Positions 1 through 3,894 of a DNA stretch of 4,701 nucleotides are shown here, piece by piece (position 1 is the stretch's first letter; each line of letters opens with the position of its first letter). The position numbers were made by a program, and so were the translations under genes. Under the pieces are notes generated by a model. The model was not told the origin of the DNA. It worked only from the letters and a program-made list of their open reading frames with translations, and did no database searches. Source of the stretch: a virus (lineage: Duplodnaviria; Heunggongvirae; Uroviricota; Caudoviricetes); the IMG/VR virus record IMGVR_UViG_2663763286_000019; one strand, 5' to 3'.

Positions 1-296
1 TTAACCAGTGGCCGGCACTGACGTACTATGCGAACGATGGCTGGGTGGAAATCGACAACAACATCGCTGAAAATGCCCTGCGGGCGGTCAGTCTGGGTCG
101 TAAAAACTTCCTGTTCTTCGGCTCTGATCATGGTGGTGAGCGGGGAGCGCTACTGTACAGCCTGATCGGGACGTGCAAACTGAATGACGTGGATCCAGAA
201 AGCTACCTTCGCCATGTGCTTGGCGTCATAGCAGACTGGCCGGTCAACCGGGTCAGCGAACTGCTTCCGTGGCGCATAGCACTGCCAGCTGAATAA
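1..296 (+). CDS. IS66-family transposase (TnpC-like), C-terminal fragment; 5' end lies upstream of the window
   Basis: Reading frame is open from the window edge (codons from position 3: [14 protein letters not shown]...) to TAA at 294-296. Translation ...[75 protein letters not shown]... matches, from memory, the conserved C-terminal region of IS66-family transposases. Not confirmed by search. Confidence 0.8.
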
Positions 297-333
297 CACA
301 TCCCCGTCAATACGGCCCTCGCTGTACGCTTAC
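1..333 (+). mobile_element. Right-hand end of an IS66-family insertion sequence (partial element)
   Basis: Transposase stop at 296 is followed 37 bp later by ...GTACGCTTAC (324-333), whose reverse complement begins GTAAGCG, the terminal sequence typical of IS66-family inverted repeats. The boundary at 333 is inferred; the other end and target-site duplication are outside the window. Confidence 0.55.
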
Positions 334-435
334 TATTTATCAGGATTTATCGGTTTCTGAACCCTGGATATGTTTATCTGTCCCGGCCTGTTGAATCAGG
401 CGGGGAAAAGGTAAAGACAATCAAGAGGATTATTT

Positions 436-708
436 ATGGACAATAACACCATTTCTCTACAGGAGTTGCTCGACTGCATTTCAAAGCTTCGGGATGATGT
501 AAATGCCCTCACTGTTGCATTTTCATATTTGGCCTTATCAATTCCCAGAGAACAAATGCAACCAACACTGGCATCGCTCCTGCTTGAATCACGCAACCCC
601 AAATGGTCCCAGGAACAACAAAATTCTTTCAAGTGGCTGGCGGCATTACTGGAAGAAAAATATGCTGGTAAAATTACCATTTCGGTGGAGTCTTCAGAGA
701 ATCAGTAA
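436..708 (+). CDS. Hypothetical protein, 90 aa, predicted mostly helical; function unknown
   Basis: ATG at 436 preceded by AAGAGGA with about 6-nt spacing. No recognisable motif in MDNNTISLQELLDCISKLRDDVNALTVAFSYLALS... . Its 3' end overlaps the convergent 674-1018 gene by 35 bp, so one of the two ends may be miscalled. Confidence 0.4.
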   Translation: MDNNTISLQELLDCISKLRDDVNALTVAFSYLALSIPREQMQPTLASLLLESRNPKWSQEQQNSFKWLAALLEEKYAGKITISVESSENQ

Positions 709-1018
709 TTCTTCCTGGTAGCTTTCCTTTGTAGGTTATCCACACATTCTGCGCCTCTAAAATTACGGGGCGCTTTTCCGGCGACTGCTCATCCCCTTCA
801 CATAACCCGGCTGCAACTTCCAGGAAGACCTGTCTGATGCTCCTTCTGGCTGCTGCCTCATAAAACTCCAGCGCGGCACCTTCAACACGGTCCAGCGAGA
901 TGTCCAGGTCAAAAATTTCACCGTCAAAGCGTTTTTTGTCCCTTAATGCTACAGTTACCGCAACTTTATTCTCAAAATTGCGGATCCCTTTCACAATCAG
1001 TTCATAGTTTTGTGTCAT
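674..1018 (-). CDS. DUF1327/YdfR-like prophage protein (114 aa from the ATG at 1018)
   Basis: The ORF track gives 674-1039, but the internal ATG at 1018-1016 has a GGGGAGAG Shine-Dalgarno about 8 nt upstream and lies 4 nt after the holin stop, so I call 1018 as the start. Size (about 115 aa) and position directly after the holin match the YdfR/DUF1327 slot of Qin-type prophages. Assignment is by context, not sequence recall. Confidence 0.55.
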   Translation of the reverse strand: MTQNYELIVKGIRNFENKVAVTVALRDKKRFDGEIFDLDISLDRVEGAALEFYEAAARRSIRQVFLEVAAGLCEGDEQSPEKRPVILEAQNVWITYKGKLPGRITDSLKTPPKW

Positions 1019-1022
1019 TGAA

Positions 1023-1238
1023 TTACTCTCCCCGTGCAACCTTACGCTTGTCTTCTTTAATCTTGAAATAAAGGTTTGTCAGGTACGTCAGCAAGCCAAA
1101 TACCAGACTACCCAGCACACCGATTGCAGCCCACTGTGACGGAGTTACTTTATCGAGTAACTGCAATGCCCAGAAACCAGCATTACCAGCCGATGTGCCA
1201 TAGGCGATACCTGTTGTTAACTTATCCATTGATTTCAT
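1023..1238 (-). CDS. essQ: Class II holin (phage 21 S-type pinholin) with dual-start motif
   Basis: 71 aa, [71 protein letters not shown], closely resembling the phage 21 S / EssD / EssQ pinholin as I recall it. Met1-Lys-Ser-Met4 dual start (antiholin/holin), two hydrophobic segments, charged C-terminus. SD GGGGTGAGGA upstream of the ATG at 1238. Confidence 0.85.
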
Positions 1239-1456: not shown

Positions 1457-1627
1457 ATGTCAGAACGTAAAGACTCAAAATCACGCCGTAATTATCTCGT
1501 TAAATGTTCCTGCCCAAACTGCACCCAAGAGTCAGAACACAGTTTTTCAAGAGTACAAAAAGGTGCCCTTTTGATCTGCCCTCATTGCAACAAAGTATTC
1601 CAGACAAATCTTAAAGCTGTAGCTTGA
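1457..1627 (+). CDS. ynfU: Small zinc-ribbon protein, 56 aa (CxCPxC ... CPHC), YnfU-like
   Basis: The ORF track starts at 1406, but the internal ATG at 1457 has AGGAAAAG 7 nt upstream. Product MSERKDSKSRRNYLVKCSCPNCTQESEHSFSRVQKGALLICPHCNKVFQTNLKAVA has two Cys pairs about 18 residues apart. The gene symbol rests on my recollection of a 56-aa putative zinc-binding protein at this position in Qin and is unverified. Confidence 0.5.
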   Translation: MSERKDSKSRRNYLVKCSCPNCTQESEHSFSRVQKGALLICPHCNKVFQTNLKAVA

Positions 1628-1709: not shown

Positions 1710-1990
1710 AATATTGTGGTACTTTTTGTGGGAGTCATCCACTTACGCACTTTGTTTTGCTATGCCAGCAGTTAGCTTCTGCTGTAAAACTATTCATGCA
1801 GCAAACCTGCACTTCACCACAATGGTTAGCATACTTTTCCTGATTAAGTTATTGCCAAATATGCTGGCCATTGTTTCATGTATTGGACCTCCTTACTCTT
1901 TATTAAAGAGATCCAATATTCACCACTCTGTCTGTATCTCCACTCAGGCATCAGCCTTCTTCGTTATCGTATACAGACAAACTATGAATT

Positions 1991-2206
1991 TTAATCAGTA
2001 ATTATGACATTTGCTGCTGCAGGACCTTTAGCACCACTCTCTACAGAGAAGGTAACCTTTTGACCTTCAAATAAGGTTCGATAATTATCATTCTGAATCG
2101 CAGAAAAATGCACAAACACATCTTTACTACCATCAACAGGAGAAATAAAGCCAAAACCTTTATCAGCGTTAAACCATTTTACTAAACCAGTCATTTTATT
2201 TGACAT
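1991..2206 (-). CDS. cspB: Cold-shock protein CspB (CspA family, 71 aa)
   Basis: [71 protein letters not shown] carries the cold-shock domain RNP1/RNP2 motifs (KGFGFI, VFVHF). AAGGAA SD upstream of the ATG at 2206. The paralog call (cspB rather than cspA/G/I) relies on the C-terminus ...NVIITD and the prophage context. Confidence 0.85.
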
Positions 2207-2366
2207 TCTACATTCCTTAACTTGAGCCTTTCGGCATAAATGGCTTGTATAACAGAAACGACTTCGTACTTAATTGGAGAGACTCAAAGAAGGAATAAGT
2301 GAATAACACCTGAAATGAGAACTGCTTTAGTAAACTACTTCGTATATCGTCTGTTCTTCAAACCGA
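2207..2366 (-). promoter_or_regulatory. cspB long 5' UTR (about 160 nt) with cold-box-like element near its 5' end
   Basis: Minus-strand sequence GGTTTGAAGAACAGACG (2364-2348) resembles the cspA cold box (GGUUUGACGUACAGAC), and GCCGAAAGGC plus UUAAGGAAUG near the start codon resemble the cspA leader. Transcription start inferred at about 2366 by analogy with cspA. Confidence 0.55.
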
Positions 2367-2372
2367 CGCAAT

Positions 2373-2506: not shown

Positions 2507-2719
2507 TTGTCCCGTAAAATGACAGGAATTCTCAAAACCTTTGACGGCAAAAGCGGCAAAGGTCTTATAACCCCATCCGATGGTCGTATCGATGTCCAGC
2601 TTCATGTTTCAGCGCTCAATCTCCGCGATGCAGAAGAAATTACCACCGGATTACGCGTGGAATTTTGCCGGATAAATGGTCTGCGTGGACCATCAGCTGC
2701 CAATGTTTACCTTTCATGA
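2507..2719 (+). CDS. cspF: CspF/CspH-type cold-shock-like protein (70 aa), non-canonical CspA paralog
   Basis: [70 protein letters not shown]. Apparent TTG start at 2507 with AAGGAA 5 nt upstream. Called cspF rather than cspH because it is divergent from cspB and sits between Q and the holin. Confidence 0.75.
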
Positions 2720-2773: not shown

Positions 2774-2863
2774 ATGAATAAACCCGTCTGTCTTGATGAC
2801 TGGTTGATTGGCTTTAAAAGCTTATGCTGTACTTTGACCTTAATAGCTCTGCTAATAATGTAA
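2774..2863 (+). CDS. Candidate small hydrophobic protein, 29 aa ([29 protein letters not shown])
   Basis: ATG at 2774 with GGAG (2763-2766) 7 nt upstream, TAA at 2861-2863, 55 nt downstream of the cspF stop. The C-terminal about 20 residues are hydrophobic and could form one transmembrane helix. Short ORFs are frequent by chance in AT-rich DNA. Confidence 0.3.
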
Positions 2864-3011
2864 TAAGCAGACTCATTGTATCTATGGACATTGTACTGGA
2901 AGAAAGCATTTTAAACATCAGGCAAAAAACAAAGTCACCCGATAAATAATAAGTAAACTAACATGAATCCCGTAATGAGATTCAACATCTCTATTACCCT
3001 ATTTAAAGCAC

Positions 3012-3037
3012 AAAAACCCGCTCATCAGCGGGTTTTC
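3012..3037. terminator. Bidirectional intrinsic terminator: tR'-like on the minus strand after the late promoter, cspF terminator on the plus strand
   Basis: Stem CCCGC (3017-3021) / GCGGG (3028-3032), loop TCATCA, with A5 and T4 flanks extending the stem. The plus strand continues TTTTCTACTTTTTCTT; the minus strand continues TTTTTGTGCTTT. Confidence 0.65.
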
Positions 3038-3141: not shown

Positions 3142-3894
3142 TTATCTCGTCACCTTTCTCAATTGTGCTTCAGCGTAAGATTCCTCCTGCCAGCACTTTG
3201 TAACCAGTTTATCAATGACATTTGCATATCCTTTATACCACTGATAATCACTCAGGTCCGGTACCAGCTTCTGGACATGATGCCGCGCCAGTGTGGTTGG
3301 TAAACGACTAAACCGTTTTCCATTGCAACGCCCACAAATCTTATAAACAGGTGTGCCATGAAGCCGGGTCCTTTTTTCATCCAAGACAATACCTTTACCC
3401 TTACACCCTCTGCACGCTGTGCTGACTTCTCCCTTACCATGGCAATGCTGACATAGTTCCTTCACCCACTCTTCTTTGATAACAGATTCCCCGCTTCTGG
3501 AGTGTTTCACCACTTCGCGCAATACATTATGAAATCCAGTACCAGCACAATGCTCACAACGAGCCTTACTTGCCGCAGACCTGGAATAATCAGCAAAGGC
3601 AAAATTCACAAGGTAAGGAATAATCTGTAGCCGGGTTTCTTCACTCAATTTATTCAATGTCGGGTTATCCAGTGCCATCGCGTAATTGAGCAGACCTTCA
3701 ATCGCAAACTGAGGATCCTGAACACCAACTTTTGCCAGGAATAAGGCAAACCCAAGCGGTGCTTTCGACTGCACCATCCCCTGCGTAGCCATCACATCCG
3801 TAATCGTTAAACCACCAGAGCCTGTCGCCGGTGCGTCATCACTCAATTTTGGAGATTTTGGGGAGTAATATTTTGGTAAGGCTTCAAGGTTCAT
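3142..3894 (-). CDS. quuQ: Late-gene antitermination protein Q homolog (250 aa)
   Basis: 250-aa ORF immediately upstream of the pR'/tR'-like module and downstream of a DUF968 gene, matching the size and position of Qin QuuQ. GGAG SD 7 nt upstream of the ATG at 3894. Contains four CxxCxGxG-type repeats (CEHCAGTG, CQHCHGKG, CRGCKGKG, CGRCNGKR). Confidence 0.75.
   Translation of the reverse strand: MNLEALPKYYSPKSPKLSDDAPATGSGGLTITDVMATQGMVQSKAPLGFALFLAKVGVQDPQFAIEGLLNYAMALDNPTLNKLSEETRLQIIPYLVNFAFADYSRSAASKARCEHCAGTGFHNVLREVVKHSRSGESVIKEEWVKELCQHCHGKGEVSTACRGCKGKGIVLDEKRTRLHGTPVYKICGRCNGKRFSRLPTTLARHHVQKLVPDLSDYQWYKGYANVIDKLVTKCWQEESYAEAQLRKVTR

Follow-up and report, generated by a model that had tools for sequence, protein, structure and literature searches.

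What is a small gene doing on the strand opposite to a phage lysis operon, in a place where an endolysin gene might be expected? The question arose from a 4,701-nucleotide stretch of viral DNA (IMG/VR record IMGVR_UViG_2663763286_000019), referred to here as the window. In it, a 90-codon open reading frame (ORF90; positions 436-708, plus strand) lies between the end of an insertion sequence (IS) of the IS66 family and a minus-strand gene of the YdfR family. We found that ORF90 sits in a cassette within an otherwise conserved module, essQ-ydfR-(ORF90)-rrrQ-rzpQ, and is oriented against the late operon. We are confident of the identity and anatomy of ORF90 as described below. With moderate confidence, we favor the overall reading that ORF90 is a real gene in a lysis-module cassette and a moron, in this case a host small protein carried by a phage. 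A moron, as defined by Hendrix and colleagues, is an extra transcription unit in a phage genome.

ORF90 has the features of a translated gene. It starts with an ATG at 436 and stops at 706-708. A Shine-Dalgarno sequence, AAGAGGA (423-429, plus strand), is 6 nt before the ATG, and the 3' end of ORF90 overlaps that of the minus-strand ydfR gene by 35 bp (674-708). The predicted product has 90 residues (10.2 kDa, pI 4.6) and would be a three-helix cytoplasmic protein. Direct reading and the listing of open reading frames bore out all of the coordinates in an initial annotation of this DNA (ORF90, its Shine-Dalgarno sequence, the overlap and the distance of ~100 bp to the IS66 end). That annotation also took ORF90 for an opposite-strand gene with a good translation start, possibly a moron, and both views held up; moron is the best label. 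It allowed that the frame might not be conserved among related prophages. Of 164 IMG/VR loci, 160 had the complete frame without interruption; in two others just the final codon was lost, and in two more the frame stopped prematurely. The core GAGGA and the ATG were retained in all eight upstream haplotypes (GAGGATT.TTTATG), though the surrounding bases vary.

Because a second open reading frame lies antisense to ORF90 (396-680, minus strand, 94 codons), we asked which strand is coding. The ratio of nonsynonymous to synonymous polymorphism (pN/pS) for ORF90 was 0.28, but this measure could not separate the strands (0.275 for ORF90 and 0.218 for the antisense frame) because the wobble positions of the two frames coincide. 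We dropped it as uninformative on this point and relied on the survival of stop codons. The antisense frame had internal stops in 126 of the 164 loci (at or before codon 69 in 83 of them), and its product matched no family in Pfam or PHROG. In addition, amino acid replacements were milder in the ORF90 frame (mean BLOSUM62 score -0.08) than in the antisense frame (-0.63). The antisense frame is a shadow of ORF90 and not a gene.

ORF90 is not intact everywhere. Several independent frameshift alleles enter the +2 frame at different positions and give 94-residue products (P0046, P0048, P0051, P0054, P0062 and P0065). Truncated forms of 50-56 residues are present on dozens of contigs (the set also lists P0047, P0056, P0058 and P0060), and the gene is decaying in some prophages.

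The initial annotation called ORF90 an orphan, and this description did not survive database searches. The product matched the PHROG 2411 hidden Markov model end to end (E = 4.9e-57; residues 1-90 on profile positions 1-90 of 90). It is the RefSeq protein WP_001315200.1 ("hypothetical protein"), annotated in E. coli strains CB9615 and 2013C-4974, and one UniRef entry names it Ybl58. The exact protein is found on at least 1,000 contigs. Since it is full length relative to its family, it is also not a fragment of some longer known gene, as the initial annotation had considered. No match to ORF90 was found in the Pfam, NCBIfam or PADLOC libraries, and a comparison of 53 family members to Pfam gave only scattered noise below threshold. 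Our literature searches found nothing on "ybl58", on WP_001315200 or on DUF1327 together with lysis, and a search on morons and lysis found nothing specific.

The family extends well beyond E. coli. Our initial search detected relatives only in Escherichia and Shigella (at least 71% identity). Proteins of 81-97 residues with 30-55% identity (30-60% across the relatives overall) then emerged from an exhaustive profile search. A second search using that alignment found 123 proteins from Citrobacter, Serratia (many species), Sodalis, Chania, Gibbsiella, Chimaeribacter and Acerihabitans. All 123 are annotated as hypothetical and none has a Pfam domain. A search of IMG/VR with one divergent homolog (P0033) gave no match. 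Family members have in common the motif ELL..I..L..L..AFSYLAF...ES.N...Q..F..LA, in which Y31, L32 and E51 are the only invariant residues. These homologs, with their common motif and invariant residues, settle the matter: ORF90 encodes a protein and belongs to a real family.

A structural model is consistent with this conclusion. An AlphaFold2 model based on the 53-sequence alignment (mean predicted local distance difference test score 82.4) has helices at residues 8-33, 38-52 and 59-77 followed by a disordered tail. The highest mean Kyte-Doolittle value over 19 residues was 0.93 (grand average of hydropathy -0.32), and therefore ORF90 should have no membrane segment. Holins and antiholins have at least one transmembrane segment; the three helices of the ORF90 model are amphipathic. 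Sequence searches of the PDB with the single sequence and with the profile gave a best E value of 0.11, and the model had no informative fold match. We considered and rejected the AroQ chorismate mutase fold. Scores were in the non-specific range for short helical proteins, identity was 7-15%, and the Arg/Lys catalytic set is absent, the only family invariants being Y31, L32 and E51.

We also considered that ORF90 might not be translated, that is, that its conservation comes from the late mRNA or an antisense RNA and that the frame is an artefact of gene calling. The failure of pN/pS to separate the strands fits this view, as does the fact that the 70 bp upstream are better conserved than ORF90 itself. 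However, the antisense frame is broken in most relatives and the plus-strand frame is open. Homologs with only 30-40% identity keep the length, the helix pattern, the motif and their own ribosome-binding sites in unrelated contexts, and the structure is predicted with confidence. We consider an untranslated ORF90 very unlikely.

We compared the genomic settings of the family members. In a prophage of Citrobacter freundii, an 83-residue member is encoded on the opposite strand directly upstream of a holin-lysozyme pair, and a convergent 63-codon gene overlaps its 3' end. Likeness of this 63-residue product to the YdfR tail (see below) was not significant beyond the stretch overlapping the ORF90-type gene. 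An unassigned phage has an 88-residue member on the opposite strand, beside the last genes before terminase. In Serratia rubidaea, Chimaeribacter, a Sodalis species and an unassigned relative, the ortholog (here called X) stands alone in the fixed chromosomal order pyrC-dinI-X-bssS-solA. It has its own ribosome-binding site and lies between the dinI terminator and a downstream hairpin. The Serratia marcescens form is found on at least 1,000 contigs, and there are two further chromosomal contexts for the family. In E. coli K-12 the gap between dinI and bssS is 286 bp and contains no such gene. Together, these comparisons show a family of 81-106-residue predicted three-helix proteins of Enterobacterales in two settings: inserts on the opposite strand within or adjoining prophage lysis genes, and a core chromosomal gene between dinI and bssS.

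In loci L166-L169 and L180-L185, the dinI gene next to X carries a conserved terminator and a clear LexA box (AACTGTATAAATAAACAGTA; L168, 5572-5591). We found no LexA box or shared operator before X in the Serratia-type genes; conservation there is confined to the dinI terminator.

The simplest reading of the two settings, judged from sequence and gene order, makes the phage gene a captured copy of a small host protein, carried by temperate phages. A more specific version is that the family is an unrecognized small regulator of Enterobacterales, ancestrally in the stress locus pyrC-dinI-X-bssS, that temperate phages captured more than once and placed in opposite orientation to their lysis genes. 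The prophage copy would then hijack the host pathway controlled by X, or its convergent transcription would act as a brake on leaky expression of the endolysin. We consider this version improbable. If true, the hijacked pathway could be one in the SOS response, biofilm formation or RNA decay, and YdfR, the RNase E-binding protein with the rewritten tail, might take part.

The position of ORF90 became clear from a comparison with the prophage Qin of E. coli K-12. There, ydfR overlaps rrrQ by 4 bp and there is no ORF90. The alignment to Qin that the initial annotation had proposed located the breaks in synteny: homology between strain CB9615 and K-12 ends at window position 340 and resumes at 811 (blastn). 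The intervening 470 bp (341-810), absent from Qin, form a cassette that replaces 90 bp at the 3' end of the K-12 ydfR. The cassette consists of a 95-bp leader, ORF90 and 102 further bases, and it also contains the alternative tail of ydfR. In more than 140 IMG/VR loci a homologous block spans the interval between the rrrQ end and the essQ start, and therefore S-ydfR-ORF90-R, as judged by this comparison, travels as a single module. Chlobot and vB_EcoS-783R2, both isolated phages, have the module as well. So does phiSTEC1575-Stx2k, in which a different lysis set comes after it.

The cassette changes the protein encoded by its neighbor. The minus-strand gene (674-1018) encodes a 114-residue protein that matches Pfam DUF1327 (PF07041; E = 1.1e-42) and PHROG 406 and resembles K-12 YdfR (BLASTP), and it thus belongs to the YdfR family. 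Residues 1-74 are common to the local and K-12 proteins (82% identity; the N-terminal domain is encoded by about 797-1018). The last 40 codons (674-796) are encoded by the cassette and are unrelated to the K-12 tail (BLASTP). A 72-residue domain of YdfR is reported to bind RNase E (PMC13232886). With residues 1-74 shared, the breakpoint is therefore at the domain boundary: the swapped tail starts directly after the RNase E-binding domain and replaces the K-12 C-terminal helix. The frame of the tail was open in all 148 loci examined. By pN/pS, there was no frame-specific constraint on the tail supplied by the cassette (0.62 in frame and 0.59-0.89 in the other frames); the value for the N-terminal part was 0.41. 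The cassette thus provides a natural variant of YdfR that has the RNase E-binding domain with a different tail. Other C-termini are found elsewhere. PHROG matches included N-terminal domains of YdfR fused to longer C-termini (phrog_2091, 183 residues; phrog_1085, 296 residues).

Why, then, does the window appear to have no endolysin? The initial annotation noted, correctly, that no endolysin or spanin follows ydfR within the window, and it placed ORF90 where the endolysin should be. We found that the chromosome of E. coli 2013C-4974 matches positions 300-1050 at 100% identity. In many other genomes, that of O55:H7 strain CB9615 among them, the 100% match starts only at base 334. The annotated gene order in 2013C-4974 is rzpQ, rrrQ (lysozyme), ISEc8 (tnpA, tnpB and a transposase pseudogene), the hypothetical protein that is ORF90, and the YdfR-family gene, and then essQ, ynfU, cspB, cspF, ydfT (Q antiterminator) and a DUF968 gene. 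In CB9615 the order is the same minus the IS, so that essQ-ydfR-ORF90-rrrQ-rzpQ are contiguous. Based on the gene order in these two strains, the window corresponds to the part of a Qin-type lambdoid prophage remnant that holds late regulation and lysis. The lysis module opens with essQ (1023-1238, minus strand), which encodes a phage-21-type class II holin (Pfam PF04971, E = 1e-33; RefSeq). The holin, endolysin and spanin genes are on one strand, as in a phage-21/Qin-type lysis cassette, and are contiguous in CB9615 and interrupted by the IS in 2013C-4974. Thus, the endolysin and spanin genes are not missing. The window appears to have no endolysin because ISEc8 inserted 3 nt upstream of the rrrQ start and separated rrrQ-rzpQ, which lie intact directly beyond the far end of the 2.4-kb element. 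The apparent absence is an artefact of the window edge and the IS insertion, and there is nothing unusual to explain.

The IS itself was readily identified. Positions 1-333 (plus strand) are the right end of ISEc8, an IS66-family element, as judged by Pfam matches (PF03050 and PF13817), the RefSeq annotation and the reading of its ends. The C-terminal coding region of the transposase stops at 296 (Pfam matches 45-296), and the terminal repeat (...CGCTTAC) ends at 333. In 2013C-4974, the transposase gene (L002, 6459-7997; RefSeq "IS66-like element ISEc8 family transposase") is a pseudogene with an internal stop, and it is preceded by tnpA and tnpB. The junctions read ...CATGGATATTTATC|GTAAGCG...CGCTTAC|TATTTATCAGG. 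The sequence TATTTATC at 334-341 is one copy of an 8-bp target-site duplication. The second copy is on the far side of the element, 3 nt before the rrrQ ATG, and IS-free genomes have only one copy. Eight bp is the size of duplication expected for the IS66 family. The element thus has an IS66 transposase, the tnpA and tnpB accessory genes and an 8-bp duplication on both sides. Among the 30 best genome matches, the junction was seen only in 2013C-4974, and about 1,100 complete E. coli genomes have essQ-ydfR-ORF90-rrrQ without the IS. The insertion is a simple, late, strain-specific event that, in 2013C-4974, leaves rrrQ-rzpQ separated from the late promoter and the holin gene. The ORF90 ATG is 102 bp from the end of the IS. 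Since ORF90 and the IS genes are co-oriented, transcription driven by the IS could possibly read through into ORF90.

These findings also dispose of the suggestion that an IS66-mediated rearrangement created ORF90 or altered the ydfR tail. Its only support was proximity, the IS ending at 333 and ORF90 starting at 436. In contrast, the sequence from base 334 on is identical in many IS-free genomes, the 8-bp target duplication is perfect, rrrQ is intact beyond the IS, and the cassette is present in free phages. The rearrangement is already refuted. The initial annotation was thus right that the C-terminus of the YdfR-like protein is altered (residues 1-74 common, tails unrelated) and wrong in attributing this to the IS, since the same arrangement, 100% identical, is found in IS-free genomes.

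We looked for signals that would allow ORF90 to be expressed on its own. By alignment and folding, the sequence upstream of it (342-435, plus strand) is its leader; read from the minus strand, this stretch forms the rrrQ leader. E. coli clades that diverge at about 18% of synonymous sites in ORF90 are almost identical over positions 334-401, at the edge of which ISEc8 inserted. Because this DNA serves as a leader on both strands, the constraint could belong to either rrrQ or ORF90. Inside this conserved block there is only a weak promoter candidate (TTTATC-17-TATGTT, 346-374), identified by eye. A hairpin at 375-413 (core 386-401, GCCTG-TTGAAT-CAGGC) had a predicted energy of -22.1 kcal/mol (z = -3.8), and none of 200 shuffled sequences was as stable. 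Downstream, a hairpin at 751-777 (plus strand; GCGCCUC-N9-GGGGCGC followed by UUUU) is 43 nt past the ORF90 stop and inside the ydfR tail. This hairpin, with a 7-bp GC-rich stem, is almost invariant in 148 loci; it is a candidate weak terminator. A search of Rfam found nothing in 300-1300.

Hairpins are also present in the leaders of other phage-borne members (window 375-413; L160, 2950-2975; L170, 5927-5947; L178, 5927-5948). Each has a 5-8-bp stem and a 6-nt loop and is 35-55 nt upstream of the start codon. The stems differ in sequence: GCCTG/CAGGC, GCCAGTG/CACTGGC and CGACTGTG/CACAGTCG. These hairpins could be an element of the 5' untranslated region, an operator or a chance likeness.

Based on this anatomy, we favor ORF90 as a moron. 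The 470 bp that replace 90 bp of K-12 Qin are extra DNA separating two genes that lie side by side in that related prophage. The base composition of this DNA differs from that of its flanks, although modestly (GC content 0.40 for the leader and 0.43 for ORF90, compared to 0.46 for the N-terminal part of ydfR, 0.45 for essQ and 0.51 for rrrQ). ORF90 would probably be transcribed alone from the prophage and not with the late genes, with the hairpin at 751-777 likely acting as a weak terminator. As the product is predicted to be soluble and acidic, with no membrane segment or conserved catalytic pattern, its most likely mode of action would be to bind a host protein and thereby modulate host physiology in lysogens, much like other small paralogs of stress proteins in Qin-type prophages (CspB/F/I, GnsB and DinI-like). 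We hold this host-modulation mechanism as possible but doubtful.

Several observations weigh against ORF90 being a moron with its own transcription. A scan of the plus strand from 300 to 436 for the sigma-70 consensus found no site. A terminator scan did not call the hairpin at 751-777, because its loop is 9 nt and it has only four U residues, and so there is no canonical terminator. With no promoter found by scanning and a hairpin below the criteria, independent transcription of ORF90 is unproven. In addition, the alleles that are frameshifted (94 residues) or truncated (50-56 residues) in some genomes indicate that ORF90 is dispensable in at least some prophages. Lastly, in three phage lineages the family recurs within or adjacent to the lysis genes, and this could mean a role related to lysis and not one directed at the host.

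This last point raises the possibility that ORF90 is a regulator of lysis, tuning the holin, the endolysin or YdfR, or that convergent transcription from it damps leaky expression of rrrQ-rzpQ. The three lineages are those of E. coli (between ydfR and rrrQ), Citrobacter (upstream of the holin-lysozyme pair) and the unassigned phage (between the last genes before terminase), and in both E. coli and Citrobacter the 3' end of the ORF90-type gene overlaps a convergent late gene. On the other hand, ORF90 is on the opposite strand and outside the late operon, it has no membrane segment, the homologous lysis module of K-12 lacks it, and chromosomal orthologs (Serratia, Sodalis and Chimaeribacter) are far from lysis genes. 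The surroundings of lambdoid lysis genes are also a common site for unrelated accessory genes. It seems rather unlikely to us that ORF90 regulates lysis.

A small acidic protein with no assigned function at a moron position of a temperate phage might also be a prophage defense, superinfection-exclusion or anti-defense protein. Moron loci are often enriched for such functions, and the initial annotation had suggested an anti-defense or immunity-type protein. No specific tool result points this way. ORF90 did not match any PADLOC-DB 2.0 model at E <= 1, which is absence of evidence only, and no partner gene is conserved. Further, several genera have the ortholog as a single core gene in stable synteny between dinI and bssS, and this is atypical of defense genes. 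We give a defense function little credence and continue to favor a moron derived from a host small protein.

In the rest of the window, genes for ynfU (1457-1627, plus strand), cspB (1991-2206, minus strand), cspF (2507-2719, plus strand) and the Q antiterminator (3142-3894, minus strand) follow essQ. The genes cspB, cspF and ynfU, between the Q antiterminator and the holin, occupy the slot of the stx genes in Shiga toxin (Stx) phages. Rfam gave a full-length match to the cspA thermoregulator (1928-2367, minus strand; 156.7 bits, E = 5e-42) that covers the 5' untranslated region of cspB and the gene. A 29-codon hydrophobic open reading frame (2774-2863, plus strand; RefSeq hypothetical protein WP_122995718.1) is just downstream of cspF. 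Two GC-rich stem-loops, AAAAACCCGC...GCGGGTTT, at 1688-1710 and 3011-3036, flank the csp block and resemble bidirectional terminators.

Our results indicate that ORF90 is very common: a large share of E. coli genomes have it, among them sequence type 131 (ST131) and relatives of enterohemorrhagic E. coli. ORF90 itself was already catalogued. What is new is the wider family, the orthologs between dinI and bssS, and the swap of the tail of the RNase E-binding YdfR. For ORF90, this is a gain in cataloguing and not a surprise; its common occurrence, its confident three-helix model and the dinI-bssS orthologs together give a cheap experimental handle on one more hypothetical prophage gene.

How does ORF90 compare to known systems? 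PHROG 2411 and WP_001315200.1 are the same protein, in a family with no assigned function and no Pfam or NCBIfam model. Among lambdoid morons, the bor gene of phage lambda adjoins Rz, is oriented against the late operon and is expressed in lysogens; its product, Bor, is a lipoprotein. Like such morons, ORF90 is extra DNA between two late genes that adjoin each other in K-12 Qin, on the opposite strand, with a lower GC content and a hairpin followed by a run of U residues. Unlike bor, it rewrites the C-terminus of its neighbor, and its product has no signal peptide or membrane segment and no kinship to Bor in sequence or fold. A second comparison is to the host-protein paralogs carried by Qin-type prophages (CspB/CspF/CspI, GnsB, YnfN and the DinI-like proteins). 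The chromosomal counterpart of ORF90, unlike theirs, is absent from E. coli itself, and the upstream sequence yielded no cold-shock or SOS element. In other respects ORF90 resembles these genes: it is a small stand-alone gene in the same late region of the prophage, with counterparts on the chromosomes of Enterobacterales.

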